Positions 1,486 to 62,185 of a DNA stretch of 64,000 nucleotides are shown one piece after another; position 1 is the stretch's first letter, and each line of letters starts with the position of its first letter. The notes under the pieces were generated by a model. The model was not told the origin of the DNA. It searched no databases and saw nothing but the letters and a program-made list of their open reading frames with translations. Position numbers and translations under genes: made by a program. Source of the DNA: an uncultured Gammaproteobacteria bacterium (GTDB taxonomy: Bacteria > Patescibacteriota > Patescibacteriia > Magasanikbacterales > UBA922); the NCBI GenBank assembly GCA_964597575.1, contig CAZQXB010000001.1, positions 402,111-466,110 on the forward strand. Direction: 5' to 3'.

Positions 1486-1607
1486 GGAATATAAATATAT
1501 TCCTTCTCCTCACGGAGAATAGTTCCCACCTCCTTCACCAAGTTCTGCACCGAAAAACATGGCTAACTAAAGCCATGTTTTTTGTATACCCGCGTGTGGA
1601 ATCGAAC
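1486..1607. repeat. inter-cassette repeat copy A (right 120 bp of element)
   Basis: ggaatataaa...cacgg..agttcc.acctccttcaccaag.tctgcaccgaaaaacatggct..agccatgttttttgtatacccgcgtgtggaatcgaac. Confidence 0.7.
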
Positions 1608-1697
1608 TAAATGGTGTTTTTGCTATAAAGAATCTACGCACTTGCAATATAAAATATAAATGGCAAGCTATATACAATCATTTACTATCTATAAACT

Positions 1698-2135
1698 ATG
1701 CCTAAGAAAAAATTGCAACATCAAAAAGACATTAATGGTTGTGGTATAGCCTGTATATCCAATCTATTGGGTAAGCCATACGACTGGATTAAGAAGGATT
1801 TTGAAGATAGATTTTATACCATTGAAAGAGGGGTAAAGATTTTTGATGTTGTTTCATATCTAGAAACACACAAGCTTAAATATAAGAGTAAATTTTTTAA
1901 CCAAAATAAGAAGTCTAAAGTAGACGTCGGTGAAGCAGATGCATTTTCTAAAATACCAGGGTCTATAACGTTAATTGCTAAAAATAAAACGTACCCTATT
2001 GGGCATTATTTACTCCGAACCAAAGATGGTTGGGTGGACCCATGGTATAACTTTCCAAGTATAGATAATGTACGGGCTGGGATGAGAAAAGAGCTGCCTG
2101 GTAACCCTTGGTATGTTATGTATCCAATCGCTTAA
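1698..2135 (+). CDS. papain-like cysteine peptidase, C39-like domain protein
   Basis: Q-x5-NGCGIACISNLLG catalytic Cys motif and downstream GHYLL His motif resemble the peptidase C39 family. Confidence 0.45.
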   Translation: MPKKKLQHQKDINGCGIACISNLLGKPYDWIKKDFEDRFYTIERGVKIFDVVSYLETHKLKYKSKFFNQNKKSKVDVGEADAFSKIPGSITLIAKNKTYPIGHYLLRTKDGWVDPWYNFPSIDNVRAGMRKELPGNPWYVMYPIA

Positions 2136-2206
2136 ATAAGCAGGTTCCAAGTTCATTCTGTACGGCCTACTAGCGTGTAATTCGTACTGGATTCTGAAAG
2201 AGCTGT

Positions 2207-2803
2207 ATGGTAGTCTCTATTAAAGATTATATGGCACAAAATACCTCATTTGAATATTTAGTAAGCGAGATTAGGGCTACTAGTTCTCAAACTTTTGTCA
2301 TTGCCATTTCAGGCTTTGGGGGTTCTGGAAAAAGCACAATAGCGAAGAAATTGGTAGAAGCACTTAAAGATGCTACTATTATCCCTCTTGATGATTTTAT
2401 CATGAATCGTCTCCAAGGCCGTTCTTTGGAGTGGGCATCTTTTGATTGGCAACGATTAATAAAAGAGGTGTTACTTCCAATAAGAAAAAGAGAAAAAAGC
2501 ATCGAATATGGTGTGTATTCTTGGATAGAAGATAAGGTGGCTCAGAAAAGAACAGTAGAGATCAAAAAGTACGTTATTATTGAAGGGGTCGGACTTATCC
2601 GAGATTCTTTGCAAGAATACTTTGATTGCACCGTATGGATCGATACCCCTTTTGATATAGCGATTGCTAGGGGTAAAAAACGTGATAAGGAAGAGTATAG
2701 TATAGATCATGACAAGCTTTGGGATGAAGTGTGGGGTCCAAATGATAAGGATTATTTTGATACATTTAAACCTAAAGAGAAAGCCGACTTCGTTCTTTCC
2801 TAA
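2207..2803 (+). CDS. P-loop nucleoside kinase (uridine kinase/phosphoribulokinase family-like)
   Basis: Walker A AISGFGGSGKSTIAKKL; VIIEGVGLIRD...VWIDTPFDIAIARGKKRD resembles the Udk/PRK family. Confidence 0.5.
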   Translation: MVVSIKDYMAQNTSFEYLVSEIRATSSQTFVIAISGFGGSGKSTIAKKLVEALKDATIIPLDDFIMNRLQGRSLEWASFDWQRLIKEVLLPIRKREKSIEYGVYSWIEDKVAQKRTVEIKKYVIIEGVGLIRDSLQEYFDCTVWIDTPFDIAIARGKKRDKEEYSIDHDKLWDEVWGPNDKDYFDTFKPKEKADFVLS

Positions 2804-2812
2804 AGAAGAGTT

Positions 2813-3733
2813 ATGAAGACTAAAAATACATACCAACTTCCTATTGTCTTAGCACACGTTACAAAAGTCGCAAAAGAAGGTATTGCTCATGTTGGTGACC
2901 TCATTCATTCGATTGACTACGATGCACCAATCGGTACCCCAATTACCGCTGCCCTTGATGGTGTTGTTATTGCTATAAAGCAAGATTCAGATCAAGGTGG
3001 AGGCGATCCAAAATATGAGAATGATGGAAATTATATCGAAATTCTCCATGAGAATGATGAAGTTTCAGAATACGAACATATTCTACAGCATTCTGCTAAA
3101 GTAAAGATAGGCGATGGGGTTAAAAAGGGGCAGGTTATTGCATCAGTCGGAAATACAGGGTGGAGCGAGTGTCCGCATCTTCATTTTATGGTGTACCCAA
3201 AAGGTGAGGAATATAAAACACTTGAAATTCAGTTTGAGAGTGAAGAATTCGTTGACCTGGTTGATAAAGAAGGGCGGATGCAAAAAACTCAAGTACTACG
3301 TTCAGAAGTGTCGAAGTATCCTAATTTACACATGCAAATTGTTATTGCAGTAATTTTAGATAACCAACAAAGAATTTTAGTCCATAAGAGAGCATCTACA
3401 AAAAAGGTAGATCCTGGAGCTGTCGATCATGTCTGTGGTGGGGTTCAGTCAGGAGAAACACCGATTGAGGCCGCTATACGAGAAACTACCGAAGAAACTG
3501 GGCTCGTTCCATGTAATCTAAAAGTCGTCATGCAAGGGCTAAATTCCTATGGCCGATATCGGTATTTACTTTTAGGTGAAGCCCAAGGAGAACCATCAGT
3601 TGATCCGAAAGAGGCAGAATGGGTACGCTTTATCTCGGTGGAAGATTTAAGAAATCTTTTTGAGAGTAAAAAAGAAGCTTTTGTTCATGAATTTTTTAAG
3701 GATACGGATTTAGCTATTCGTGCTACTGTCTAA
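2813..3733 (+). CDS. M23 (LytM-type) metallopeptidase domain fused to a NUDIX hydrolase domain
   Basis: M23 HxxxD and HLHF (HxH) motifs in the N-terminal half; NUDIX box GGVQSGETPIEAAIRETTEETGL in the C-terminal half; no signal peptide. Confidence 0.6.
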   Translation: MKTKNTYQLPIVLAHVTKVAKEGIAHVGDLIHSIDYDAPIGTPITAALDGVVIAIKQDSDQGGGDPKYENDGNYIEILHENDEVSEYEHILQHSAKVKIGDGVKKGQVIASVGNTGWSECPHLHFMVYPKGEEYKTLEIQFESEEFVDLVDKEGRMQKTQVLRSEVSKYPNLHMQIVIAVILDNQQRILVHKRASTKKVDPGAVDHVCGGVQSGETPIEAAIRETTEETGLVPCNLKVVMQGLNSYGRYRYLLLGEAQGEPSVDPKEAEWVRFISVEDLRNLFESKKEAFVHEFFKDTDLAIRATV

Positions 3734-4835
3734 GTATATGGAAATAAAGGCATTTTTTGGAATACTTTCATCTCTCTTCATCTTTTTAGGAGGTATTCCT
3801 TATTTGAGGGATATTCACTTAAGAAAGGCGCACCCGCATGTTCTTTCATGGATTGGCTGGGCTTTCATAACAGCTCTAGGAGCCTTTGCCATGCTGGCTG
3901 GGGGTAGTCAGTGGGCGGTTGCTATATTGCTCAGCAATACCCTTCTCTGTCTTCTTATTGTCCTATACTCAGTTTTTAAAAGAGTTGGCGTCTGGTCAAC
4001 CATGGTATGGGACTTTGTATTTTTTGGACTTGGGTTACTTGGGCTTGTGCTTTGGCAGACACTTCATCTCCCCATTCTCGCCCTCATCTGTGCGATTATT
4101 GCTGATTTTTCTTTCGGTCTCCCCACCATTGTTAAAACGTATAAAGATCCAAACTCAGAAACTCCTTTTGTCTGGGCTACTGCCACAATATCCGGAATAT
4201 TTAGTCTATTTGCTATAAGAAGTTTTGCTTTTTCTGAAGTTGCGTATCCATTGTATCTTTTTCTCTATGATGGAATTGTACTTCTTTTAGTGCTTAAGAT
4301 TTTTGTTAAAAAAAATAAAAATATTCGAAAATTGCTGGATACAATTGTTAATGAAAAAAATGAAAAGAACTGGTATGTTCCAGAATTATTTCAGCAGAAT
4401 ACGTTACCAATTTTACCAAGGGAGTTAAAAGTTATCGCTCTGCCTCCCTTATATGATGAAAACTACAATTGTTTTATCTATGCTCTGGGATTGTCGAATA
4501 ATCTTGAATTTATTAAGAAGGTGTCTGGTTTTATCTATAGCCCATTTGTTAAGAAGTTAATCGAAGAAGGAGTCCTTCGGGAATCTAAAGAAATAAAGAA
4601 AGGAACAATTATTTTATATACCAATGAAAAGAAATTTCCTGGGGAAATAGCGCATGCTGGGGTGATGAAAGATAAAGACACTGTTATTTCAAAATGGTCT
4701 TGGGGACCCACCTTAGAACATTCTCTGCTATCAGTACCTCTTTCGTATGGTGAAACATTGAAGTTTTATCATTTAGAATCTACAAATAGTGTTTTATTAG
4801 CATACGAGAAATTTAGTGCACTTAATAGGGCTTGA
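3720..4835 (+). CDS. polytopic membrane protein with C-terminal putative Cys/His hydrolase-like domain
   Basis: Five or six hydrophobic helices at the N-terminus; C-terminal NCFIYALG ... HAGVM Cys/His spacing like NlpC/P60 or CHAP-type folds. Confidence 0.35.
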   Translation: MLLSKYMEIKAFFGILSSLFIFLGGIPYLRDIHLRKAHPHVLSWIGWAFITALGAFAMLAGGSQWAVAILLSNTLLCLLIVLYSVFKRVGVWSTMVWDFVFFGLGLLGLVLWQTLHLPILALICAIIADFSFGLPTIVKTYKDPNSETPFVWATATISGIFSLFAIRSFAFSEVAYPLYLFLYDGIVLLLVLKIFVKKNKNIRKLLDTIVNEKNEKNWYVPELFQQNTLPILPRELKVIALPPLYDENYNCFIYALGLSNNLEFIKKVSGFIYSPFVKKLIEEGVLRESKEIKKGTIILYTNEKKFPGEIAHAGVMKDKDTVISKWSWGPTLEHSLLSVPLSYGETLKFYHLESTNSVLLAYEKFSALNRA

Positions 4836-4888
4836 CTGGTAAGTTGTTATCACGAATTAACCTCACACCTCAACTCACTATAGTTTGA

Positions 4889-5051
4889 GATATAGTGAGT
4901 ACTACTGTGGGGTAAGTGGAGAAATACTCGGAATATAAACATACCCTTTCTCTTCACGAATAATAGTTCCGACCTCCTTCACCAAGCTCTGCACCGAGAA
5001 ACATGGCTATAATAAGCCATGTTTTTTGTATACCCGCGTGTGGAATCGAAC
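4889..5051. repeat. inter-cassette repeat copy B (full, about 165 bp; preceded by 10-bp perfect palindrome aactcactata/tatagtgagtt at 4872-4900)
   Basis: Direct alignment to copies C and D. Confidence 0.75.
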
Positions 5052-5066
5052 TTTATGTATACTGGA

Positions 5067-5095
5067 TTGACAAAATACTCTTTTTGTGGTATTAT
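5067..5095 (+). promoter_or_regulatory. sigma70 promoter TTGACA-17-TATTAT driving the high-GC gene at 5250
   Basis: Consensus hexamers with 17-nt spacer; AGAGGAG RBS 9 nt before the ATG. Confidence 0.55.
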
Positions 5096-5249
5096 CTTTA
5101 GTCAAATTGTGTTTCAAAAATTACTAAATTTAGGTCATTTTACTGATTTAAATCTAGAAGTTTTTGACTGCTATAGCTAAACTTCTATCTTAGGTATTTG
5201 CTTAAGATATTGGTTCTCTACAATTCAATCGAAAGAGGAGTGAAGAAAA

Positions 5250-6785
5250 ATGGATAACAAGTTCTGTCCTCACGGCAAGCACGTGAAGTTCTGCGGCGAA
5301 TGCGGCAATCTGTGGTTCGAAGTGCAGGCGCCCCATGTCTGGATGAACAGCATGGACCCTGGACGAGATGCGGGGATCGGTCTGATGAAAGAGCGTCACG
5401 GTATCGTCACGGTGACTGTCGAGCAGCACCATCCGAGCCTCGGTCTTCTCGACAAGTCTGTGGTGATGGTGCATGTTACGGGACATCTCTTCGTTTGGGG
5501 TATCGAGAAGATTCTCGAAAACGCCCCGAACGTCAAAGAGATTCAGGTTCAGCCACACATGGTGAAGAAGCTGACCGACGCTCACCGTACTCTCTGTGCA
5601 AAAGCTGGAGTCAAGTTGACGAGCGGATACTCAGACCCTGACCGTGCTTGGGAAAAAGGTGAGGTGAGACGGTCGCCACGTTTCCTAAAGATACGGAAGT
5701 TCTTTCAGCTTCTCGAAGGCCAGCAAAAAAAGCTCTTCGACGAGCTCATCGAGTATGGTATCGAGTCGGCCCTCATGGCTCGGGACTACTACGAGGAAGC
5801 AAGTGACGGAAAGGAGGGGGAGGAGCCTGTCACACTGCATACTCTGTGTAAAAAGTACGGGTACAACGACAGTGTGATGGCCCACATCTCAGCTCGGATT
5901 TACTCCGTGCTAGTGTACCTCGATCCTAATTACAAAGTGGGGCAGGATTCGCGACGGCTTGCTCGTGTCATGAAGGATGATGTTGAAAGGCTTCGTGAGA
6001 AGTTCGCGACTGCAAAAGCAAGGCAGGATCAGGCAGCCGCGCTTGGTCTCCGAATTCTTCCTGTCGACATGCCACTGCAGCTCTACGATGAGTTGGAGAT
6101 GGTTGTTACTGCCCAGAGGAAGGGCTGGCTGAAGCAACTCCAGGCTGCAAGGCCGCGAGCGCATCGTGCTCTGACGCTGAGGTACGACATACGGGATACG
6201 CAAAATCCGCGTTTTCGTACCCTCGAAGAGGTGGCCGAGACGATGGGTGGCGAGGATTTCAAGACGCGCGAGAGAGCTCGTCAGTTGGTGGAGCAGGCTA
6301 TCGAGTTTTTCGTCTTGCAAGGACAGGCAAGCGGTGAAACTCTGAGAGCTGGACGCGTGCAGGAGAAAGCGACGAAGATCGTCCAGAAGAAGGCCGCTCG
6401 GGCAAAGGCTGGTCCTGTAACTCAGTTGACCAAGGTTCCTGGTCCCGTCGAAAAGCAGGTGGTGAACCTGGTTTGCCAGTCTTATGGCTTGCCTGAGACT
6501 GAGATCTTCACTCACGGCAAAGATCAGCCGTGGGCAGAAGCTCGACAGGTCATCATGGCTCTGTGGAGACGGTACCTCAACTGGTCCTACCCGCTGATCG
6601 CAAGAGAGATGGGTAAGGAAGATCACACGACGATCATACATGGTTGTCGAGAGATCGCCAGTCGTCGGAAGACCGACCGAGTGCTTGAACAGCGGATGAC
6701 GCTGATCGAGATGATGCTCGGCAAGCCGCCGCCCGACTTGAGCGCCATCGAAATTTCCCCAGATCCTTCCACTGCCTCGCAATGA
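5250..6785 (+). CDS. high-GC Zn-ribbon / sigma70-region-4-like HTH / DnaA domain IV-like HTH fusion protein (putative DNA-binding regulator or replication-initiator-like)
   Basis: N-terminal CPHGKHVKFCGECGN; RALTLRY..RTLEEVAE..TRERARQLVEQAI resembles sigma70 region 4; EARQVIMALWRRYLNWSYPLIAREMGKEDHTTIIHGCREIASRRKTD resembles DnaA C-terminal domain IV; about 58-60% GC against flanks of about 33%. Confidence 0.6.
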   Translation: MDNKFCPHGKHVKFCGECGNLWFEVQAPHVWMNSMDPGRDAGIGLMKERHGIVTVTVEQHHPSLGLLDKSVVMVHVTGHLFVWGIEKILENAPNVKEIQVQPHMVKKLTDAHRTLCAKAGVKLTSGYSDPDRAWEKGEVRRSPRFLKIRKFFQLLEGQQKKLFDELIEYGIESALMARDYYEEASDGKEGEEPVTLHTLCKKYGYNDSVMAHISARIYSVLVYLDPNYKVGQDSRRLARVMKDDVERLREKFATAKARQDQAAALGLRILPVDMPLQLYDELEMVVTAQRKGWLKQLQAARPRAHRALTLRYDIRDTQNPRFRTLEEVAETMGGEDFKTRERARQLVEQAIEFFVLQGQASGETLRAGRVQEKATKIVQKKAARAKAGPVTQLTKVPGPVEKQVVNLVCQSYGLPETEIFTHGKDQPWAEARQVIMALWRRYLNWSYPLIAREMGKEDHTTIIHGCREIASRRKTDRVLEQRMTLIEMMLGKPPPDLSAIEISPDPSTASQ

Positions 6786-6910
6786 GGCGCCCTTGAGCTC
6801 ACGCTCGGGCTTCGCGACTTCGGGTCAGTCGCAACAAATCAAACCGTCCCGATAGGTGATACTATCGGGAACATTCAAAACATCATCTCACTCGAGGTGA
6901 TTTTTTGTTT

Positions 6911-7074
6911 ATATATAGTGAGTATTACTCTCGGGTAACTGGTAAAAGGCTCGGAATATAAACATATCCTCTCTCTTCACGTATAATAGTTCCGACCCCC
7001 TTTACCAAGCTCTGCAACGAGAAACATGGCTATACAAAGCCATGTTCTTTGTATACCCCTGTGTGGAATCGAAC
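6911..7074. repeat. inter-cassette repeat copy C (full)
   Basis: Direct alignment to copies B and D. Confidence 0.75.
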
Positions 7075-7214
7075 CAAGGTGTAGTTCTAAAGAAAACTTT
7101 ATGATTTTTTTATCTAGGGTATGATATGTTCCTTTAGTTATTCTGAGTACCCTATTGTATACTCGACATACCGTGTATTCTTCAGTAGGGTACGCCCAGA
7201 ATAATCTATTTTCT

Positions 7215-7880
7215 ATGAACCGTAAAAACAACACTCTCATTGCATTACTAGTAGTTATCGTTATTCTCCTTATCGGAGGGTATGTTGTACTTGTCCAAAA
7301 AGAAAACGAACCAATGGTAGGTCCAGATAATGGAAATGGAACATCGGTTGAAATTCCATCTACCACACCATCTTCTAGTGAAGAGATAGTAAATAATGGA
7401 AGTTGGGAAAAATATACTTCTCCAGATTTGGGTATTTCATTTGAATATCCAGCAAGTCTTAGTCTCTTTCAAGAGCGTAAGGATACTGACCGCGGAGAGG
7501 GAAATTTTGTCATTCTGAAACGTGAGAATGAGCAGAGAAGATTTCTAGGAACAGTACTGGTAAGTTCTCCTGATTATATACGAGAAATTGATGGTTTTCC
7601 TTCCTATATGTCAGGAGATTATTTTTTGGATCAAAGCGAAAGTGAGATAGAAAAAATTATTAGACAGAGAATTCATGCGGTTACAGCCATTACCAAAATG
7701 CCAAATAATTTTTATGCAATTACGCAAGAATATGTGTTTGGTGATAATCCTGTAAAAGGGACATTTTATTTCACTCAAAGAAAAAATAGTGAGTTACTTA
7801 ATGTAAGTATATATCAAGTTGATGGGGTTATTAGTAAGCAAGAAGATTTAGAGAATTTTTTAGAAAGTTTCAAATTTTAA
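7215..7880 (+). CDS. hypothetical membrane-anchored/secreted protein
   Basis: ORF with N-terminal hydrophobic anchor MNRKNNTLIALLVVIVILLIGGYVVL; track ORF begins at 7155. Confidence 0.4.
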   Translation: MNRKNNTLIALLVVIVILLIGGYVVLVQKENEPMVGPDNGNGTSVEIPSTTPSSSEEIVNNGSWEKYTSPDLGISFEYPASLSLFQERKDTDRGEGNFVILKRENEQRRFLGTVLVSSPDYIREIDGFPSYMSGDYFLDQSESEIEKIIRQRIHAVTAITKMPNNFYAITQEYVFGDNPVKGTFYFTQRKNSELLNVSIYQVDGVISKQEDLENFLESFKF

Positions 7881-8013
7881 AGTTAGGAGAATTTGGTTGA
7901 GGTGATTGCGTACATGCTTGGCAGTATCCTCAACCAAATTTTGGCTGAGGTTCTTTCTAGAACTCATTGGATAACCCGATGATACTGCAAAGAAAAAATG
8001 AAGGGGTGCTGAC

Positions 8014-8110
8014 ATGCAGGCGATCGTTCGTTTTCTGCTATGTATGCTGGTGTTCTGTCCGTGGTTCGCTGCGGCAGATTACCAGGGACCTGTGTTATTT
8101 TCACCCCCCA
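8014..8110 (+). CDS. possible small high-GC hydrophobic peptide (MQAIVRFLLCMLVFCPWFAAADYQGP...), 3' extent uncertain
   Basis: GAAGGGG RBS 7 nt upstream of the ATG; high-GC hydrophobic N-terminus; reading frame runs on into AT-rich promoter-like sequence without a stop. Confidence 0.2.
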
Positions 8111-8171
8111 CTGTAAAAAATATTTACCTTAACACAAAAAAATGTTATGATAAAATCATAAGGAGGTGCAA

Positions 8172-8477
8172 ATGTCGGAATTCGAAAAAGATGCTGCGGT
8201 GCAGCTTGTGGCTGTGCTGCTTGTCGGCGGACTGCTTGTCCTGATCGCCCTGCACTTTGTTGTCTATTTTCTCTTCAGAGGCGTGCAGCCATTGGCTGCT
8301 GCTAGGATGCCTGCCACAGATCAATCTTTTTTAGAGCCAGATGCCACGCCTTGCGATGAAGAAGATCCTGAAGAGATGCGACAGTGCACAGATGCATGGG
8401 TGAGGGCAAGAGAGGCGGAGGGCGCAACTATCTTGCGGACACGAGACGGGCATGGGATTGTGGCTCTGGGCCCTTAA
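8172..8477 (+). CDS. small high-GC membrane protein with acidic C-terminus (hypothetical)
   Basis: AAGGAGG RBS and extended -10 (TGTTATGAT) upstream; one TM helix; about 60% GC. Confidence 0.4.
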   Translation: MSEFEKDAAVQLVAVLLVGGLLVLIALHFVVYFLFRGVQPLAAARMPATDQSFLEPDATPCDEEDPEEMRQCTDAWVRAREAEGATILRTRDGHGIVALGP

Positions 8478-8529
8478 CGATAGTGAAATCGATCCAGGGC
8501 TCCAGCCTCCAACGATCTGCTTCTGCTCA

Positions 8530-8585
8530 CAGAGTCACTTGCTATTGCTGTGACTCTTTTTTATGTTCCGTGCGTGGAATCGAAC
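8530..8585. repeat. inter-cassette repeat partial copy E (different hairpin agagtcac..gtgactc + T-run, conserved 3' motif ccgtgcgtggaatcgaac)
   Basis: 3' motif matches other copies. Confidence 0.55.
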
Positions 8586-8597
8586 TAAGTTAGATCA

Positions 8598-9236
8598 TTG
8601 AAAAGAATGAGGCTTTATGCTAGTGCATGTGTATTCTTAGATCTATCTTCTATTTTGTTTATTATGAATAATAAAGGTTTGTACGTCATCATTGCGTTTC
8701 TTTTGGTCATCCTTTGCGTTGTTGGATATAAAGCATATTCTGTTTCTGATCGTACATTGTCTCCAAATGAGCAGTTCTTAAATCAAGAAAATAACCCATC
8801 AAATGAAAATAAAGGCAATACGCTTACTGATTCTCTCAAAAACAGTAAGGGTTATAGCGCTGGCGATACACGTGATATCTCTTCGTTATCTAGTTCGGAT
8901 ACGAGTAAAGAACTCGATATTGCATTGATCCAGGATGTTAAAACTATTCAAAATCAAAATATCTCTTATAAGTTTTATCGAGTTGGATTTGGCGATGCGC
9001 CTCCACACTATAGTAATGGACAAATTATCGTTGAAGTAACGACGAATCAAAAAGGTCCAAGTCGATGGTATTATTTTAATACTGATATTATTGATGCTGA
9101 TTCTATTGAATCACTCCTGTTTAGTGGTGAGGATGTGCGTATGTCTTGTAAAACAGGTAAACCAAATGGTACATGTTTATATACGATAAAATTTCAACCA
9201 GACTTGGAGATGTTAAAAATTTATAAAGTAAATTAG
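8598..9236 (+). CDS. hypothetical membrane-anchored secreted protein
   Basis: ORF; TM anchor LYVIIAFLLVILCVVGY; real start may be an internal Met near 8663. Confidence 0.4.
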   Translation: MKRMRLYASACVFLDLSSILFIMNNKGLYVIIAFLLVILCVVGYKAYSVSDRTLSPNEQFLNQENNPSNENKGNTLTDSLKNSKGYSAGDTRDISSLSSSDTSKELDIALIQDVKTIQNQNISYKFYRVGFGDAPPHYSNGQIIVEVTTNQKGPSRWYYFNTDIIDADSIESLLFSGEDVRMSCKTGKPNGTCLYTIKFQPDLEMLKIYKVN

Positions 9237-9378
9237 TAGACCTCCTTGACACTAAGGTTAAATTACGTTAGGATTTCGAGCGACCAAAAGGTCATCACAT
9301 GCGTGGTGATTTTTTGTTTACTCATTCCTGTTCTTGTGTTACTTTTAATTTGTAGAATAACAAAATTTTATTTTTCGT

Positions 9379-10119
9379 ATGTCAGAAGGTCCAAAACGTT
9401 TTGAGTTAGGCCAGATGTTTCTTCGAGAAACAAATAGTATTCCACAAGCAGACAAATGGTTAGAAAACAGGGCTGAATGGATGGTTGGGGCTGCTCAAAT
9501 CAAAAAATATTTGGCACCAAAAATTGAATTTCGTGACAGATTGGCTGGAGAGGTAGAAAAAGGAGTAAAGGTGTTAGCTATTGGTGCAGGAAAAGGACAT
9601 GAGCTTGATGAAATGGACAGCATTCTTCCTGGCTCAGAAATCATAGGTCTTGACCCCGATGATTTTTATTCTCGACCAGTAAAGCAAAAACTAGAAAAAA
9701 CTGCCCATAATGCGTCATATCTTCCAGAAACTATTCGTGCAGAAAATTTAGAGGGTGTAGAAAATGCTTCACTAGATGGTGTAACATTATTTTTTGTACT
9801 CCATCATATTGATGAACAAAAACACGGCGCTGTTTTAAAAGAAATTCATCGTGTTCTTAAGCCAGATGGAAAGGTGTTTATCGCTGAAGATTTGGTAGAT
9901 AACGATGAGGAAAGAAAAATAACCGAAAGAACGGATCGTATTTTGAATACTGAGTTATCAGGCAAGAATTCACATCATTACCGAAGTATTCCTGAGTGGA
10001 AAGTTTTTTTTCATACATACGGCTTTGAAATAATAGAGGTAAGCGAACAGAAGCCTGATAAAGTTCGCCATGGATTTTTTGTATTAGAAAAAGCAAACAT
10101 TTTACAAAATAATACATAG
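9379..10119 (+). CDS. class I SAM-dependent methyltransferase
   Basis: Motif I VLAIGAGKGHEL and post-I acidic residue; LKPDGKVFIAE motif. Confidence 0.55.
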   Translation: MSEGPKRFELGQMFLRETNSIPQADKWLENRAEWMVGAAQIKKYLAPKIEFRDRLAGEVEKGVKVLAIGAGKGHELDEMDSILPGSEIIGLDPDDFYSRPVKQKLEKTAHNASYLPETIRAENLEGVENASLDGVTLFFVLHHIDEQKHGAVLKEIHRVLKPDGKVFIAEDLVDNDEERKITERTDRILNTELSGKNSHHYRSIPEWKVFFHTYGFEIIEVSEQKPDKVRHGFFVLEKANILQNNT

Positions 10120-10174
10120 TCACGGTAGATTTATAATATAATCAACTAAGACGGGGAAGGTTTTTTTGTTTGTA

Positions 10175-10337
10175 GATATATAGTGAGTGCTAGTGTGGGG
10201 TAACTGGAGAAACATATGGAATATAAATTTATCCCTTCTCCTCACGAATAAAGTTCCGACCTCTTTACCAAGCTCTGCACCGAAAAACATGGCTATAACA
10301 AGCCATGTTTTTTGTATACCCGCGTGAGGAATCGAAC
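10175..10337. repeat. inter-cassette repeat copy D (full)
   Basis: Direct alignment to copies B and C. Confidence 0.75.
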
Positions 10338-10351
10338 TAAAATTAAAATGT

Positions 10352-11908
10352 TCACTCTACCTTAAACATGAACATCATGCCTGCTTCGAGATGTTCAGAA
10401 ATATGACAGTGCGCCATCCACGTGCCTAGGTTGGATGGGTCAAGTAATATATCAACTGTTGCTCCGGCCGGAACCATAACCGTATCTTTCCATGCGAGGT
10501 TTGTTTGCGCTACACCGTTCACTGACAGAACAAGAAAGCGCTGACCGTGAAAATGAATCGGGTGTTGCATGGGGTGTGGGGAATTTGGGTCATTATAGAT
10601 TTCAATGCGTACCGGCTTATCTTTTTTGAAAACCCAGTCTATGTCCATATTGGATTTGCCGGTTGCGCTGTCTATGATCTTCCATCTTGTTTCTTTCGTG
10701 GTTGCCATTCTGTTCATCATCTGTATCATGCCCCCCTCGTTTTCCCATTCAATACCATCATTTGACATCCCCATGTTCATGTCATTATGTGCACCTCCCG
10801 TTGACTGCATGTGCTCTGCCATCATGCCTGACAAGTCTACCGACAGTGTGAGTTTTTTATCTATAGCGTTGTGCATGTACGCACGAAATGGATCAATGCT
10901 TGCTTTCACCGCAGCGTTCTCTTGAAGAGTATTGAATTCTTTTGTGTACGAAGGCTCGGCAATATCCGTGCTGACAACGATATTCCCTAACGTTACAGGA
11001 CCGTTTGGAATGTTGTTTTGCAGTGCGTACGTTCCGGCCGTTGCAAACATCACATCCACAATCGCACGCTCCGAGGGGCCAAGAATAACACTATCTTGCC
11101 ACGTCGCTTTTTCATATGATCCATTGTCGCTGCCAAGCAGTTTCAGTTTTGTTCCGGCAATGGCTATTTTGAATGGACGAACATTTGCAGCATTAACAAG
11201 AGAGAGTCGTATCACCTCGTTTGTCTTTGCATCGAGCGTAAAGTGTTCCTGCCCATTGACGAGCATAGTTTGGCCATAATGGCCCATGAGCACCTGGTCA
11301 TTCCGTTCTTTGGTGAGTGCTATGTGGCCGCTCTTGGTCGGCAGGTCAGAAAGAAACAGCACGTGCTGGCTATGTGCGGGCGGATAGTAGGCCGTGTCTT
11401 TGGGTTCAACCACAAACGCACCATAAAGTCCAAGCGCCTGTTCGTACACCTCATGTGTGTGCGGATGGTACCAGAACACCCCAGCATCTGGAAAGGTAAG
11501 TGTGTAGGTAAAAGAACCCCCGGGCGGAATTTCCTCTTGCTGGAGTTGTGATCCATCAAAGGCATTGTCCATGCGCACGCCATGTGAATGAAGAAGTGCA
11601 GGTAAATCTGTGTCATTTTTGAAATTGATCGCCACCTCTGCGCCCTGCGTCACGTGAATTTCCGGTCCCGGGATCATACCATTATAGGCGAGCATGGTTT
11701 GCTTGTGTCCGCCGATGTCTTTCGTTACGTACGCCGCGGTTAAGGTGTAAGTGTCACCGTTTTTAAGATGAATGATCTCATGCGGTTTGGTCTCTTCCGG
11801 TTGCGGTTGAGGTTCTGGTGCAGTGTTTCGGGATGCGAGTATGATAGCACCGATAATGCCGACGATAGTGATTGTGGTAATGATGAGGAGTAGATTCTTA
11901 TAACGCAT
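10352..11908 (-). CDS. multicopper oxidase (CueO/CopA-type laccase-like), secreted
   Basis: C-terminal HCHISEHLEAGMMFMFKV type-1/trinuclear Cu signature; HSHG and WYHPH motifs; probable start at MRYKNLLLIITT signal anchor (the track ORF extends to 12043). Confidence 0.8.
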   Translation of the reverse strand: MRYKNLLLIITTITIVGIIGAIILASRNTAPEPQPQPEETKPHEIIHLKNGDTYTLTAAYVTKDIGGHKQTMLAYNGMIPGPEIHVTQGAEVAINFKNDTDLPALLHSHGVRMDNAFDGSQLQQEEIPPGGSFTYTLTFPDAGVFWYHPHTHEVYEQALGLYGAFVVEPKDTAYYPPAHSQHVLFLSDLPTKSGHIALTKERNDQVLMGHYGQTMLVNGQEHFTLDAKTNEVIRLSLVNAANVRPFKIAIAGTKLKLLGSDNGSYEKATWQDSVILGPSERAIVDVMFATAGTYALQNNIPNGPVTLGNIVVSTDIAEPSYTKEFNTLQENAAVKASIDPFRAYMHNAIDKKLTLSVDLSGMMAEHMQSTGGAHNDMNMGMSNDGIEWENEGGMIQMMNRMATTKETRWKIIDSATGKSNMDIDWVFKKDKPVRIEIYNDPNSPHPMQHPIHFHGQRFLVLSVNGVAQTNLAWKDTVMVPAGATVDILLDPSNLGTWMAHCHISEHLEAGMMFMFKVE

Positions 11909-12107
11909 ATGGATAGAGATTAATACCGATAAGTTATGTGGGTTACGATATGTTTTTTCTGCGGAGAAGCAGGGTGTTACAGACAAACCATTTTTCATAA
12001 AAATGGTGCCGGTAGTGCAGGTGGTTTTTAAATTATTGTACATGAACCACTAGGCTGTGCAAGATCGGCAGTATCTGGCAGATACCCAAGGTAGACGGAG
12101 AAATAAT

Positions 12108-12127
12108 ACCCGTGTGCCGAATTGAAC
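12108..12127. repeat. degenerate copy F of repeat 3' motif (acccgtgtgccgaattgaac)
   Basis: 15/20 identity to the conserved 3' motif, same orientation. Confidence 0.4.
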
Positions 12128-12152: not shown

Positions 12153-12203
12153 TTGCACAGAAAAATGAGGAGGTGTACTATATCCCCTATAGGGGGATAT
12201 ACT
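12153..12203 (+). promoter_or_regulatory. csoR promoter (TTGCAC-17-TACTAT) overlapped by CsoR-type operator palindrome TATATCCCC-tatag-GGGGATATA
   Basis: Pseudo-palindrome with C4/G5 tracts flanked by AT arms resembles described CsoR operators; overlaps the -10 and transcription start. Confidence 0.55.
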
Positions 12204-17543: not shown

Positions 17544-20500
17544 ATGAAAAAATCCCTCGTTTTAGCAATTATCTTTGGGGTGTGTGCCTCGTTTGGAGTT
17601 GTGCATGCTTTAGACAGTTTTCGGGTTCTTGCCCAAACCACCTCTTGCCCTCTCCAAACCCTTCTTCCTTACAAAACCCCACAAAGTCCTGCGGTCTACT
17701 ATATTTCTGAAGATTGTAAAAAACGCCCTATCCGAAATCCGAATGTCTATTTTTCTCACTTCAGCTCTTGGAAAGACGTCCGTGTCACATCTTCCGCCAC
17801 CCTCAATCGCATTCCTGATCACGAACTCTCTTTTCTTCCTTGGGGCCCACGTCGCGTTTTTGAAAATGGGTCACTGGTAAAAACAGTGAGTGATTCAAAA
17901 GTGTATATCCTTCTTGGGGGGGACACAATCTATCCGATTGCATCTGAAGCAGTATTTCGCACTACTCTTGGTTTTTCCTTTAATCAAATTGAAGATGTTG
18001 CCCCAAGTGTAATGCAAAAATATGGTGTGGGAACTCCTATTGCCGGGGTTGAATCTATTCCCTCGGCATTGGTATTTAAATACCCAAGCGACTCAAAGGT
18101 GTATGCGCTTGAACGCCCTAACGGAGCAGGCGATTTAACAAAACGTTACGTTGCGAGCATGGCGCAACTTGCGACCTATCAATTTCGGGCCGATCGTATC
18201 GCGACTCTTCCTCCTTCTCGAGCCTTTGCCGATGCTACTGGAATTGCGCTGCCGATAACTCCATTACCCGGGCCAGTGAATCCAGCACCGAACCCGGTTA
18301 CCCCAAATCCATCTCCAAGTGTCGTGGTGCGCCCCCCGTCACCACCGCCAGGCGTTCCGGGTGTAACACCGAGCCCAAGTCCAACTCCATCGCCGACGCC
18401 CCAACCTTCGCCATCACCAATAGTAGTAGCCCCGGTTCCTCCGCCTTCTACTGAAACAGCTTGGCCCCCAAGAATTCCAAGTAGTTTTATTATGACGGTT
18501 CGGGAAACCGCAGGTGTGCAGAGATCAGGGGAAATTCTTCGCTCTGGGGTACCCTTACCAAAGAGTGTTGCAATTCGAAACACTGCGAATTTAGGTGTGG
18601 TAGATAGTTCAGGAAATGCTGTTCCTGCAGAATTTATTCCCCTCGCTCGCTGGAATGGATCGCTTACCAGTAATGAACCGATAAAATGGTTGATGGTAAG
18701 TTTTCCAGCTTCAGTTTCAGCGTCAGGGTTAAGCACATACCGACTGGTTACGAATGGAAGTGCCCGAAATCCTGCGAGTGAGACACAGGTACGATTAACG
18801 CGTTCTGGAAATTCAGTAACCGTAAATACAGGTGCTGGAGAATTTGTGATTAATGGAGACAATTCTACTCTCTTTGAAGAAATTCGTTCAGCTGCTGGTG
18901 TGCCAGTGGCGCGAGGGGGGCAGCTTTCCGCTACCGTCGGCGGTGTGGCAGGAATATATGCGCGTGCTCGTCGGGTAACCATAGAACATAGTGATTCTTT
19001 GTCGGCGGTTGTTGTAGTTGAGGGGGAATACACCCATCCTCAAAGAAATGGTGGGGGAATGGGCACACTTCGTCGGTATGTATTTACTGCAGGGTCACCA
19101 ACCGTCCAGGTCCGTCAAACATTGGCTTGGGAAGGGGACGCAGGATATAACGGCTATGTGCGTGTAAGTCAGCTTCGCGATACACTTGTTCCGGTGAATG
19201 CTCCAACAGAAATTTTTGTTCGAGGAGAGAGGTCTCGTTCAGCATTTTCTACGAGTGGTGAAGTTTCTCTTGTCCAGAGTCGTCGAAATACGAATACAGA
19301 AGCACGTCGGTATACACTAACCACCGCTGCGCAAACGCAAACTGGCACGGCTGCCGACGGAGCATATATCGCGGCGAAAAATTCTGTAGGAACCATAGCG
19401 ATTACCCTTCCTTCCATGCACCTCTATGAACCACAGGCACTCCGTGTGTTATCGAATGGTACGATTGCTCTTGATTTAGTAAATGAAGAAGTCCCTCTCG
19501 GAAATCGGCAAGGGCTCTTTGCGAATTTTTCAGTGAGTGTTTTACCGACTGCGGCCACAGCGAGTGATGTTGAACGTTTGGCGTGGGGAACGAGTGTTGC
19601 TCCGCTTCATGCGTGGCCTTCACCTGAGTGGTTTGCTTCGAGTGAAGCTGTTCCTGAGATGCCGTATGGTCAACTTCCGACGCAACTTGCTTCGTTTACG
19701 AATATTCAAAAATCCGTTCTCGAATCTACACTCCAAAATAGTAACCAATTTGGTTTGTATGGCCTTATGACCTACGGGCTTTACCCGCGAAATTGGGCGA
19801 ATCCAATTAACAGTAATGAAGTAGCGCAGGGGACCGGACCAACCGCTAATGAAACGTGGGATGATGTCTACTGGGGAACAACGTGGACCGATTACCATAA
19901 CGCAAGCAAACTTGGGGCGTACTTTGCGATGCAAAGTGGTGAGACTGAGTGGCTCGAAAGAATTACGGCTCCTGCTGCTTGGCGCATGCTCTATACTCAA
20001 ATCATGCAGTGTGGCCCAGATGATGCATACTTTTATTGTGGTCAGGCCCCAGCAGGATACAACGGATACCGTTCCGATTTTAATAGTTCGCATGCGTATT
20101 TTGATAACCTTTTCTTGTATAGTTATTTATTTGCTGATCAAAGTGTGGTTCCGATAATCACTCGGGGGGCAAACAATATGCGTGGTTATATTTGCCCTGG
20201 GCGAGCTAATGCTGCCGGACCTGCGTGTGATCCAACCGTACAAAAGTTTGATGAGTATGCAGCGGTTACTGGGCGCTCGGCCATGCAGTATGCAAATATT
20301 TTTCATTATCTTGGCACTTCAAGTCGAGACGGAAGCTATTTGGAAGATTGGGAATCACTTCTCGCTCGAGCTGTGACTCAATATTATGTAGAGCCAGTTC
20401 AGCAGGGTGTTCCCTATGGATTTTGGGCCTCAAGCAATGCTCGTACAGGCAATACTGCTTCAGGAGCACTTCAGAGCACAGATCAGCAGTGGATGCTCTC

Positions 20501-21491
20501 TTTGTATGATATGGAGGCGCTCTATAATTACTCTGTGGAAACCGGCGATCAAGCACTCGGTAGTCCCCCTATTCGTCCGAGTCGGATTATTACGAACTGG
20601 GGAAGAACACTCACTCGATTTGGTGGTGGTGGAAGTCCAGTTACTGCAGAAGGAACCTGGCCAAATGGTTTGCGATTTCGTTATAGTGGAGAAAGAATTG
20701 GCGGCACACTCGAACAAGTAGAGGGTGATCGCTCGGGAAGTGACCCTACGCTCTATGTGGCGGGGAAGGCCGATCTCTTGGCCGTGCTTGCGCGTGCTGC
20801 AGATTGGAGCAAGGATACGGATATCAAAAATCTTGCCTCGAACATGACCCAGTTTGTGCTTCGGAATCTCGGCAACTATCCTTTAGGCAAAGAACAAGGC
20901 CTCATGCTTGCGCGGTTACCGGTAGCTGTAGCTCGTCTTACAAGTATGGCAGGAAAAGGGGAGGTATCTCTCGGGGCAACGGTAGGAATAACCCCACCAC
21001 CCGCACCAACACCGAATCCGACACCAACCACTCCGCCTCCAACACCACCCCCACCACCAGCAACACCACCTCCTCCACCATCAGCGAGTGCTTCAACGGG
21101 TTTACCAGAAAGTACATATACGCCCCAAGGCGGGCAAACAGTAACATTGGTTGATGGGCATCCATTTGCTCCAGCATTTAACCTTTCTTACTATTTCGAG
21201 CATTCTCTTGGTACAGGAACATGCTTCGGAACTGATTTTGTCGAATACGATTTTTACCTTCGGAACCCAGGGGCTTCCAATTATGAACGTATTGGTGGGC
21301 ATACTGGTTCAGCGGTCGGTTCCTTTTCAGGGGGGCATTCTATGGAAAGTCAGGGGTGTGCCAAGGGAAGGTTTCTCTATCATTTTCCAGCGAGTGCACC
21401 ATCCGGAGCCTATAGTGTAGGGGTTTGTATTACGAACACCACGAATCGTTCTGAGCGTTACTGCACTACGGCTGTGGTAACAAAGCCATAA
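17544..21491 (+). CDS. giant secreted/surface protein (1315 aa) with Pro/Ser/Thr-rich linkers
   Basis: Signal peptide MKKSLVLAIIFGVCASFGVVHA; low-complexity PSPTPSPTPQPSPSP and PTPNPTPTTPPPTPPPPP linkers; about 50% GC. Confidence 0.6.
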   Translation: MKKSLVLAIIFGVCASFGVVHALDSFRVLAQTTSCPLQTLLPYKTPQSPAVYYISEDCKKRPIRNPNVYFSHFSSWKDVRVTSSATLNRIPDHELSFLPWGPRRVFENGSLVKTVSDSKVYILLGGDTIYPIASEAVFRTTLGFSFNQIEDVAPSVMQKYGVGTPIAGVESIPSALVFKYPSDSKVYALERPNGAGDLTKRYVASMAQLATYQFRADRIATLPPSRAFADATGIALPITPLPGPVNPAPNPVTPNPSPSVVVRPPSPPPGVPGVTPSPSPTPSPTPQPSPSPIVVAPVPPPSTETAWPPRIPSSFIMTVRETAGVQRSGEILRSGVPLPKSVAIRNTANLGVVDSSGNAVPAEFIPLARWNGSLTSNEPIKWLMVSFPASVSASGLSTYRLVTNGSARNPASETQVRLTRSGNSVTVNTGAGEFVINGDNSTLFEEIRSAAGVPVARGGQLSATVGGVAGIYARARRVTIEHSDSLSAVVVVEGEYTHPQRNGGGMGTLRRYVFTAGSPTVQVRQTLAWEGDAGYNGYVRVSQLRDTLVPVNAPTEIFVRGERSRSAFSTSGEVSLVQSRRNTNTEARRYTLTTAAQTQTGTAADGAYIAAKNSVGTIAITLPSMHLYEPQALRVLSNGTIALDLVNEEVPLGNRQGLFANFSVSVLPTAATASDVERLAWGTSVAPLHAWPSPEWFASSEAVPEMPYGQLPTQLASFTNIQKSVLESTLQNSNQFGLYGLMTYGLYPRNWANPINSNEVAQGTGPTANETWDDVYWGTTWTDYHNASKLGAYFAMQSGETEWLERITAPAAWRMLYTQIMQCGPDDAYFYCGQAPAGYNGYRSDFNSSHAYFDNLFLYSYLFADQSVVPIITRGANNMRGYICPGRANAAGPACDPTVQKFDEYAAVTGRSAMQYANIFHYLGTSSRDGSYLEDWESLLARAVTQYYVEPVQQGVPYGFWASSNARTGNTASGALQSTDQQWMLSLYDMEALYNYSVETGDQALGSPPIRPSRIITNWGRTLTRFGGGGSPVTAEGTWPNGLRFRYSGERIGGTLEQVEGDRSGSDPTLYVAGKADLLAVLARAADWSKDTDIKNLASNMTQFVLRNLGNYPLGKEQGLMLARLPVAVARLTSMAGKGEVSLGATVGITPPPAPTPNPTPTTPPPTPPPPPATPPPPPSASASTGLPESTYTPQGGQTVTLVDGHPFAPAFNLSYYFEHSLGTGTCFGTDFVEYDFYLRNPGASNYERIGGHTGSAVGSFSGGHSMESQGCAKGRFLYHFPASAPSGAYSVGVCITNTTNRSERYCTTAVVTKP

Positions 21492-61502: not shown

Positions 61503-62185
61503 CGTTTTGGGAGGCGTTCGCTCAAATTATTCGTCGTGTCGGGTCGGCGATAACCCTGAAACGGTGTGTTGTGGGCGGTTTTTTCCTTGTGTTTCTTTTC
61601 ATTTTTTGTTCGCAAGTAGTTATTCTTTCTTTGGCCAAAGAAATTCACTCGGTTACGTCAACTCCTTCCGCACCAGTCGCCCTCGTGTTTGGTGCTGGCC
61701 TTAAACCAAATGGAAAACCAAGTGATGCCTTGTATGATCGAATTGAGGTGGGCGCTGAACTCTATAAAGAAGGGAAGGTCGAAAAAATTATTATGACAGG
61801 CGATAACGGAAGTCGCCTGTATAATGAGGTTGTGCCGATGCAAGAAACTGCTGAGGCGCTTGGAGTTCCAAAAAAAGATATTATTCTCGACTACGCAGGT
61901 TTTCGCTCGTACGATAGTTGTTACCGAGCGCGGGATGTTTTTGGTGTAACGTCAACCATTGTCGTATCGCAAAAGTTTCATGTGCCCCGCATTTTATTTA
62001 TTTGTCGCGCACTTGGTATAAAAACTGAAGGCGTTGGTGCAGATAAACACATATATAATGAAGCAGGTGGGTATTGGCCAGTTCGGGAATTTCTTGCACG
62101 CGTAAAAGCATTTACAGAAGTAGTCATAACTCGCCCAAAGCCAAAGTTTTTAGGTGAAAGGGAAGTGGAGTGGCAAAATAATTAA
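61499..62185 (+). CDS. DUF218 (YdcF/SanA/ElyC-like) membrane-anchored protein
   Basis: N-terminal TM; IIMTGDNGSR...ETAEALGVPKKDIILDYAGFRSYDSCYRA typical of DUF218. Confidence 0.6.
   Translation: MTFWEAFAQIIRRVGSAITLKRCVVGGFFLVFLFIFCSQVVILSLAKEIHSVTSTPSAPVALVFGAGLKPNGKPSDALYDRIEVGAELYKEGKVEKIIMTGDNGSRLYNEVVPMQETAEALGVPKKDIILDYAGFRSYDSCYRARDVFGVTSTIVVSQKFHVPRILFICRALGIKTEGVGADKHIYNEAGGYWPVREFLARVKAFTEVVITRPKPKFLGEREVEWQNN

Follow-up and report, generated by a model that had tools for sequence, protein, structure and literature searches.

The repeated sequence at positions 4872-5051 of the window (the whole 64,000-nt stretch analysed here, part of contig CAZQXB010000001.1) is read here as a unit that marks a boundary in a cassette array, the anchor of which is a tRNA-Trp gene. 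It belongs to a repeat that bounds six or seven small, foreign-looking cassettes downstream of tRNA-Trp, and it is a composite of two modules, M and X. We give a probability of about 0.55 to the reading in which M is an attachment (att)-like site and a terminator, with the recombinase that would act on it being postulated. The repeat is most likely an insertion/excision site which doubles as a terminator, rather than a transposon end or a guide-RNA scaffold, because one cassette occupies a different array position in a related genome. An earlier note on this DNA was right in concept, since it had proposed serial insertion junctions near a tRNA and the array does start beside tRNA-Trp and is cut by a sharp ...CGAAC boundary. 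Its specifics, namely an antisense tRNA core, a palindrome-associated transposable element (PATE) and an omega-RNA, were wrong or unproven.

Anatomy of the repeat and of the array

The sequence at 4872-5051 matches its earlier description. In the copy found there (copy B), the 24-mer GTATACCCGCGTGTGGAATCGAAC at 5028-5051 follows a strong intrinsic terminator with a T6 run, whose hairpin (4996-5027, GAGAAACATGGCT-ATAATA-AGCCATGTTTTTT) folds at -18.8 kcal/mol (z = -7.3), and the palindrome ACTCACTATA / TATAGTGAGT stands at the left edge (4873-4900). Two hairpins are not the general anatomy of the repeat, as had been supposed, for the left palindrome is limited to this copy and one copy in a relative (L120). 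With up to two mismatches allowed, the 24-mer occurs four times in the window, ending at 1607, 5051, 7074 and 10337, against zero occurrences in shuffled sequences. The full repeat of about 167 nt is found at 1441-1607, 4885-5051, 6908-7074 and 10171-10337 (nhmmer E 1e-46 to 1e-55), and three motif-bearing units (186-246, 8531-8585 and a decayed one at 12047-12127) add to those known earlier. All lie within 1-12.1 kb of the window, nhmmer detecting no copies in the remaining 52 kb. Equal use of both orientations, named beforehand as an outcome that would count against the idea, is not seen; every copy is on the plus strand.

Relatives of the array were recovered in several ways. A motif scan of 185,579 species genomes returned one relative with the repeat (L077), a metagenome scan with a pattern for X returned L120, from the same organism as L077, and anchoring on CopA returned L122; a 2-kb Logan contig (L131) carries a homologue of one cassette gene. 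When every copy in the window and its relatives is aligned, the repeat resolves into its two modules. Module M, of about 62 nt, runs from CTGCA through the terminator hairpin and T-run to the 24-nt motif ending in AATCGAAC, while module X, of about 100 nt, lies to the left of this CTGCA, on the cassette side, and the joint between them is constant at CTGCA throughout. Each module also occurs on its own. M without X follows tRNA-Trp in the window (M0) and in L131, the CTGCA of M0 overlapping the final bases of the tRNA gene (CTG, then CA), and is found again at 10161-10246 of L120. X without M stands beside csoR in L120/L077 and L122, where it runs on into some 190 nt of other sequence, and X is reduced to its left part at 7282-7373 of L120 and 5993-6064 of L122.

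M is the most conserved part (88-95% identity between copies), with 75-92% for the core of X. The copies do not group by genome; identity between genomes equals the level within genomes and is above the 82% nucleotide identity of copA, and X is 82-92% identical between genomes. The hairpin is very stable, at -18 to -19 kcal/mol (z = -6 to -7), and selection maintains it: the stem is kept whereas the loop varies, L131 has a compensatory change from C-G to A-T together with an A-T to G.T wobble change, and the unit at 8531 has a non-homologous stem at the same place as the hairpin of other units. The 24-nt motif is positioned after the T-run and so is probably not transcribed; that it is conserved all the same points to a site of protein binding or crossover. 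Among the M copies M0 stands apart, at about 81% identity. Such divergence would fit a crossover close to where M ends on the right, by which the chromosomal M0 stays at the tRNA and element-derived M is found elsewhere.

Several smaller observations concern the same modules. Within the M copy at 10161-10246 of L120 (minus strand), a 17-nt stretch, CATGTTTTTTGTATACC, is duplicated in tandem; what precedes this copy is an unrelated inverted repeat rich in G+C, and neither X nor a tRNA is present there. A second small repeated terminator module, CAAAAnnTCATCnCAnnCGnGGTGATTTTTTGTTTA, lies inside two different cassettes of the window (6876-6911 and 9285-9320, 83% identical), and similar designs of hairpin, T-run and GTTTAT precede hisS and csoR in L120. 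Two Logan contigs of the same organism (L002 and L121, SRR13355620), spanning 134-1599 and about 1580-5043 of the window, both from short-read assembly, break exactly inside repeats, so metagenome-assembled genomes (MAGs) of the lineage will tend to lose or scramble the locus.

The motif copies of the window end at 246, 1607, 5051, 7074, 8585 and 10337, with the decayed copy ending at 12127, and the first of them adjoins tRNA-Trp. The array is laid out as follows, each line giving positions, strand where noted and feature.

68-96, plus: tRNA-Trp promoter, TTGATT-17-TATAGT (promoter scan)
117-189, plus: tRNA-Trp(CCA), anchor of the array (ARAGORN; Rfam, 60 bits)
186-246, plus: M0, M without X: CTGCA, terminator hairpin, diverged motif GTAC-TCGCAAACGGAATCAAAC (nhmmer E 6e-11)
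247-1440, plus: cassette c1, glycosyltransferase family 4 (GT4) gene (340-1467), G+C 0.35
1441-1607, plus: repeat copy A, the GT4 open reading frame (ORF) running with its 3' end into part of X; M 1545-1607
1608-4872, plus: cassette c2, a 145-aa ORF, a uridine-kinase-like P-loop kinase, an M23 peptidase-NUDIX fusion and a DUF7689 protein, G+C 0.37
4873-5051, plus: repeat copy B, palindrome 4873-4900, X 4890-4988, M 4989-5051 (hairpin 4996-5027, motif 5028-5051)
5052-6907, plus: cassette c3, promoter, leader, 511-aa gene 5250-6785 (G+C 0.52), 3' hairpins 6847-6870 and 6882-6901
5067-5095, plus: c3 promoter, TTGACA-17-TATTAT with TG extension, then an AT-rich leader of about 150 nt
6908-7074, plus: repeat copy C, right end of c3, X 6913-7011, M 7012-7074
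7075-8530, plus: cassette c4a, a 241-aa ORF and small ORFs without family match; G+C-rich patch 8325-8530
8531-8585, plus: M-like variant, different hairpin AGAGTCAC...GTGACTCT with T6, then ATGTTCCGTGCGTGGAATCGAAC (nhmmer E 0.19)
8586-10170, plus: cassette c4b, a 212-aa ORF, S-adenosylmethionine-dependent methyltransferase (9379-10119), G+C 0.35
10171-10337, plus: repeat copy D, X 10178-10274 with two 1-nt deletions, M 10275-10337
10338-12046, minus: cassette c5, multicopper oxidase (10352-12043), absent at the same position in L120 and L122
12047-12127, plus: tentative decayed X end and motif remnant, CCACTAGGCTGTGCA ... ATAATACCCGTGTGCCGAATTGAAC (motif part E 1.2), right limit of the array

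The cassettes measure 1.4-3.4 kb and hold up to four genes each, and the genes of different segments are functionally unrelated to one another. The segments between motifs also differ in composition, with G+C contents of 0.35, 0.37, 0.52, 0.41, 0.35 and 0.47 against 0.467 +/- 0.03 over the other 52 kb. Directly downstream of the decayed copy lies the csoR promoter/operator, and the conserved copper locus csoR-copA-dsbD/cupredoxin-DUF305 extends to the right of the array, followed by housekeeping genes. The genome that contains the window has 913,817 bp (about 0.9 Mb), and the homologues of its CopA, where named, are those of Patescibacteria, or the Candidate Phyla Radiation (CPR); we infer a host of the CPR type. 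Two further features were noted outside the array. A perfect palindrome, ATATCCCCTATAGGGGGATAT, stands at 12180-12200 before csoR-copA; conserved among the three relatives, it probably serves as the CsoR operator. A 1315-aa ORF at 17544-21491 (plus strand) has no Pfam or NCBIfam match; a homologue of its N-terminus, inverted, adjoins X in L122 (2-904), with 71% nucleotide identity over 242 nt.

Related loci and the relocation of cassette c3

The csoR-copA flank on the right is common to the window, L120/L077 and L122, and their CopA proteins are 86% (L120/L077) and 95% (L122) identical to that of the window. The DNA to the left of this flank differs among them and is again bounded by X, M or both. 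In L120 the order is M, five genes, the left part of X, hisS, X-M, two genes for secreted proteins, X and csoR; in L122 an unrelated large gene is followed by X and csoR. The multicopper oxidase of c5 is missing at its position in both.

The most informative comparison is with L131, whose protein is 70% identical to the 511-aa product of c3. This contig reads, in order, the 3' part of tRNA-Trp, M, the promoter, leader and gene of c3, the same two hairpins as in the window, and X. Cassette c3 is thus the first unit of the array in L131 and the third in the window, with the same junctions: on the left, ...AATCGAAC|TTTCTGTACACTTGATTGACAAAATAC in L131 and ...AATCGAAC|TTTATGTATACTGGATTGACAAAATAC in the window share the form ...AATCGAAC|TTTxTGTA. 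The window cassette opens with the letters TTTATGTATACTGG at 5052, and copy C, at its other end, closes with ...GGAATCGAAC at 7074. Cassette c3 is thus a unit with ...CGAAC as its left limit and its own X(-M) as its right one. Between the two loci its non-coding ends are 84-90% identical and its coding sequence mostly 60-80%.

The protein of c3 has a conserved N-terminal Cys/His motif (FCxHGxHxKFCxEC), a zinc-finger match, a sigma-70 region 4 helix-turn-helix (about 300-360) and a DnaA_C helix-turn-helix (403-469), and a region of it matches DUF1699 in some relatives. Its family counts at least 107 cluster representatives at E <1e-30, mostly of about 350 aa and lacking the DnaA_C part; the homologues in L131 and L132 are P0129 and P0130. 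By its domains, the protein is a DNA-binding, regulator-like one. We also considered it as a hidden recombinase, and rejected this: the AlphaFold model is poor (predicted local distance difference test score, pLDDT, 56), Foldseek gave no significant match, and the protein bears no recombinase signature.

The homologue in L132 (ENA ERZ4903072, 1-2597), 52% identical, lies in a G+C-rich genome between tRNA-Lys(CTT) at 110-185 and tRNA-Arg(TCG) at 2458-2530, with a tRNA-like duplicate containing an insertion at 2365-2450. A repeat of the 3' end of this tRNA-Lys (19 nt, 16/19) was examined there and set aside; the second copy lies in the conserved C-terminal coding tail of the gene, and the match is probably due to chance in C-rich sequence.

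Proposed mechanism and competing explanations

In the mechanism we propose, M would be a recombination (att-like) site, of which M0, adjoining the 3' end of tRNA-Trp, would be the chromosomal copy. A mobile cassette would carry X-M at its right end and start directly past ...AATCGAAC; in circular form, it would be joined to an M already in place by a site-specific recombinase acting in trans. Cassettes would then stack in a single orientation, and their order would vary between strains. The hairpin would also end the transcription of each cassette, most of which seem to bring their own promoter just past the motif. Four elements of this scheme are inferred: that recombination is site-specific and not homologous, that cassettes pass through a circle, where in M the crossover falls, and that a recombinase exists and of what kind it is.

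Several results weigh against this proposal. Firstly, a Pfam search that covered every ORF of the cassettes and most others of at least 150 aa in the window (a few, such as 61499-62185 and 62245-63786, lying outside the scan), with PHROGs and NCBIfam added for the cassette ORFs, detected no integrase, resolvase or transposase. Secondly, just about 3 nt of tRNA-Trp fall inside the repeat, unlike in classical tRNA att sites. Thirdly, the family is found in just four related genomes or metagenomes, and neither an excised circle nor an empty site was observed. Fourthly, hisS, apparently an essential gene, lies within the L120 array (about 5830-7090; L126 12958-14214, annotated as His-tRNA synthetase), with a truncated X upstream and a full X-M beginning at its stop codon. 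Finally, the 40 nt that follow CGAAC in copy B also follow an L120 copy which precedes different genes. The divergence immediately after cgaac reported by the earlier note holds among the copies of the window, whereas the flank of copy B is conserved in two other genomes and is not random. With the X-only and M-only fragments, this shared stretch makes up a mosaic of short modules, which could also arise by homologous or illegitimate recombination.

That possibility is the strongest competitor. X, M and the promoter would serve as portable homology, and cassettes would be shuffled by RecA-dependent or illegitimate recombination after DNA uptake, with no dedicated recombinase. We regard this as unlikely but viable, because the array is a mosaic of X-only, M-only and promoter modules and contains a core gene, hisS, in L120. 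The lack of a recombinase gene among the scanned ORFs agrees with it, as do the 40-nt promoter module shared by copies with different downstream genes and the other repeated terminator module, at 6876-6911 and 9285-9320. Several features speak against it. The right boundary, AATCGAAC, is sharp and identical in seven units, one of which has a non-homologous hairpin, the left joint is constant at CTGCA, and an array of a single orientation begins exactly at the tRNA gene in two genomes. A motif past the T-run that is 88-95% conserved though probably untranscribed also suggests a protein-binding site.

X-M may instead be a multicopy small RNA (sRNA) gene, or the source of an sRNA derived from 3' untranslated regions, with a C/U-rich anti-Shine-Dalgarno stretch (ACCUCCUU) and an end at the terminator, its position at cassette ends being secondary. 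The plus strand folds better than shuffled sequences (z = -3.5 to -5.3), ACCTCCTT is kept in most copies, and X is well conserved between genomes. There are conserved -10-like boxes, TATAGT at the left edge and nATAAT in X with TAAACA 17 nt upstream, and copies A and C begin on the left with sequence similar to the promoter of tRNA-Trp (z = 1.8 and 4.0, respectively). Matches to a -35 box, however, are poor, the CCUCC stretch is altered in copies C and D, the latter with indels, and the folds vary among copies, the few variable pairs giving mixed support and none from covariation. No Rfam family covers the repeat: under Rfam 15, across the window and its relatives, only tRNAs (two of them) pass their thresholds, and the next best hit, a weak resemblance to FsrA (23 bits, E 0.37), is far under the threshold of 80. 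An sRNA would also leave unexplained the motif after the T-run, the M copies that lack X and the relocation of c3. We therefore consider it distinctly unlikely as the primary explanation; it is compatible with the cassette model and does not exclude it.

Other interpretations of X or of the motif were tried and rejected. A minus-strand reading frame across X (..LVKEVGTIIREEKGYVYIP..*) is common to the copies, with a weak period-3 signal (10/23 vs 5/23 and 6/23) and no homologues. It belongs to a longer ORF, 'Y' (...LLKGKTCVxVANTGWRVLAEN...LVKEVGTIIREEKGYVYIP), of 70-74 codons and divergent from csoR (L077 2382-2594, plus; L122 1011-1232, minus), to whose final 34 codons or so X is antisense. 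Searches of Pfam, PDB and sequence databases gave no homologue of ORF 'Y' beyond the lineage, and it bears marks of decay, with copy D frameshifted and L122 lacking a start codon; the frame in X is probably non-coding or a dead gene remnant. Descent of X from a decayed tRNA-Trp gene unit was not established: a promoter-like left edge and patches of GTTCCGA/CTGCA are all that align (z = 1.8-4.0 in copies A-D), with no such signal in the L120 copy. A dif/Xer-like site and a CsoR operator both fitted the motif poorly by eye, and the probable CsoR box lies elsewhere, as ATATCCCCTATAGGGGGATAT at 12180-12200.

The earlier note had read the motif as the 3' half of a tRNA on the minus strand, and as a resemblance this stands. 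Read on the minus strand, as GTTCGATTCC-ACA-CGCGGGT-A, the motif of the window copies corresponds in form to tRNA positions 53-73, with the T-loop consensus G53-TTCRANY-C61, then stem and acceptor strands of 5 and 7 nt and a discriminator, and it matches the 3' ends of Bacteroidales tRNA-Arg(CCG) at 18/21 positions. A wildcard pattern matched 117 places, nearly all of them real tRNA 3' ends, either of tRNA-Arg(CCG) in Bacteroidales (and some other phyla) or of tRNA-Glu(CTC) in Clostridia, although its derivation from the motif itself weakens the resemblance.

On this basis, a minus-strand tRNA 3' fragment would be the crossover core of an integrase, and M would descend from the spacer between tRNA-Trp and that tRNA, convergent with it. 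GTTCGATTCC is a canonical T-loop 10-mer, for which we estimate a chance of about 3e-4 in a 170-nt repeat on either strand. The block spans exactly positions 53-73, a partly bidirectional terminator lies 3 nt on, and the sharp boundary falls at the T-loop, as it may with the tRNA 3'-end cores of tyrosine and serine integrases, for which this is a known crossover sublocation (PMC3146451). Genuine partial-tRNA att remnants of tRNA-Arg(CCG) also occur in Bacteroidales loci. Four such MAG loci (L006, L015, L080 and L097) hold isolated 3' fragments of this tRNA without a 5' part, in two cases with the intact gene on the same contig (L015; L080 with L059), and look like classical att remnants of elements integrated there.

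We nevertheless hold the antisense core to be improbable. The exact 21-mer occurs, among the 185,579 species genomes, solely in the repeat of L077 and in no tRNA; the expected cognate, a tRNA with the 3' end GTTCGATTCCACACGCGGGTA, is absent from the window; and the MAG of the close relative, in the contigs reached by the pattern scan, lacks even a wildcard match. No copy has a 5' tRNA part beside it, and no intact tRNA stands at the right end of the array. The positions that vary are those of the T-stem, and the invariants of the T-loop are not conserved in related arrays: GCAATCGAAC destroys the invariant C61 in L131, GGAATCAAAC breaks invariant positions in M0, and the tRNA consensus is accordingly broken in both (M0 GTTTGATTCC; L131 GTTCGATTGC), while the variant at 8563-8585 alters the acceptor part. 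The strand, too, is opposite to that of tRNA-Trp. It is tRNA-Trp, which shares the strand of the repeat, that provides the functionally relevant link to a tRNA; descent of the motif from an ancient tRNA convergent to tRNA-Trp is possible, though unproven.

Significance and comparison with known systems

To our knowledge, the acquisition of accessory genes by CPR/Patescibacteria, with their very small genomes, is poorly understood. Few if any mobile elements have been described in them, and we found nothing comparable in the literature searched. Should the 62-nt terminator site serve a dedicated recombinase, the locus would represent a new cassette-capture system and would offer a usable insertion site for organisms that are hard to manipulate genetically. 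If no recombinase exists, it would clearly exemplify how short conserved modules, terminators and promoters, can act as portable homology.

The least probable identification, by a wide distance, is a non-autonomous element (an IS200/IS605-type PATE, a miniature inverted-repeat transposable element (MITE) or an element resembling a repetitive extragenic palindrome), an omega-RNA-like right end, or an integron attC, all of which the hairpins, the variable DNA past a conserved structured end, the single orientation, the lack of terminal inverted repeats and the logic of a cassette array call to mind, while no TnpA, TnpB, IscB or IntI domain was found among the scanned ORFs and collections of phages, plasmids and viruses gave no match to the repeat. 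The analogy to PATEs and MITEs drawn in the earlier note fails in other respects as well, since the copies are confined to one 12-kb array rather than dispersed, and subterminal hairpins at both ends are not a feature of all copies, the left one being present in a single window copy. Its suggestion of an omega-RNA-like right end fares no better. Such RNAs have guides of about 16-20 nt and a scaffold that overlaps the 3' end of tnpB or iscB and runs uninterrupted into the guide; here the sole ORF that overlaps X runs the other way and has no homologues, and between X and the flank stands a strong terminator with T6, beyond which no guide could be transcribed.

Integrons are closer in logic. They too have a fixed primary site, small cassettes in one orientation, an end site which contains a hairpin and a fixed junction, and a cassette order that varies between genomes. 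The sites themselves differ. attC has RYYYAAC ... GTTRRRY cores, an R''/L''/L'/R' architecture and a junction at G|TT, none of which is present in the window, where the junction is ATCGAAC|N, and the window hairpin is a perfect terminator stem in place of an imperfect stem with extrahelical bases. The window cassettes, moreover, are equipped with promoters of their own, and some contain several genes. IntI was not found within the 52 kb to the right of the array, the view to the left of tRNA-Trp being limited to 116 nt. It is possible, and we put it forward tentatively, that the locus reflects a form of integron-like gene capture not previously described, in ultra-small CPR/Patescibacteria genomes, in which a fixed site after tRNA-Trp would receive self-expressed cassettes, each with a 62-nt site, a AATCGAAC core and a 100-nt arm, through a recombinase unrelated to IntI, unlinked and possibly encoded by the host.

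The nearest counterparts are arrays of units, partly or wholly without integrases, at tRNA or tmRNA genes, such as the islands of Prochlorococcus and the tycheposon model (10.1101/2020.12.28.424599), the accretion of cis-mobilizable elements (CIMEs) in Streptococcus (ICESt1/CIME; PMC5704250) and the ssrA genomic islands of Dehalococcoides (PMC3146451). Like these, the present array starts at a tRNA gene, M0 beginning in the last bases of tRNA-Trp in both the window and L131, and has direct repeats between units, contents that vary between strains, many units without integration genes and a heterogeneity concentrated beside the tRNA. The direct repeats are present, yet only CTG(CA) copies tRNA-Trp, the remainder being the downstream terminator and the 24-nt motif; among the scanned ORFs no cognate recombinase was seen, and no unit here carries an integrase. 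The units of the window are also very small (1.4-3.4 kb), and each has the extra conserved arm X, of about 100 nt. The locus is best described as a tRNA-anchored island or cassette array of a new form, distinguished by a junction unit which is unusually small, composite and terminator-containing.

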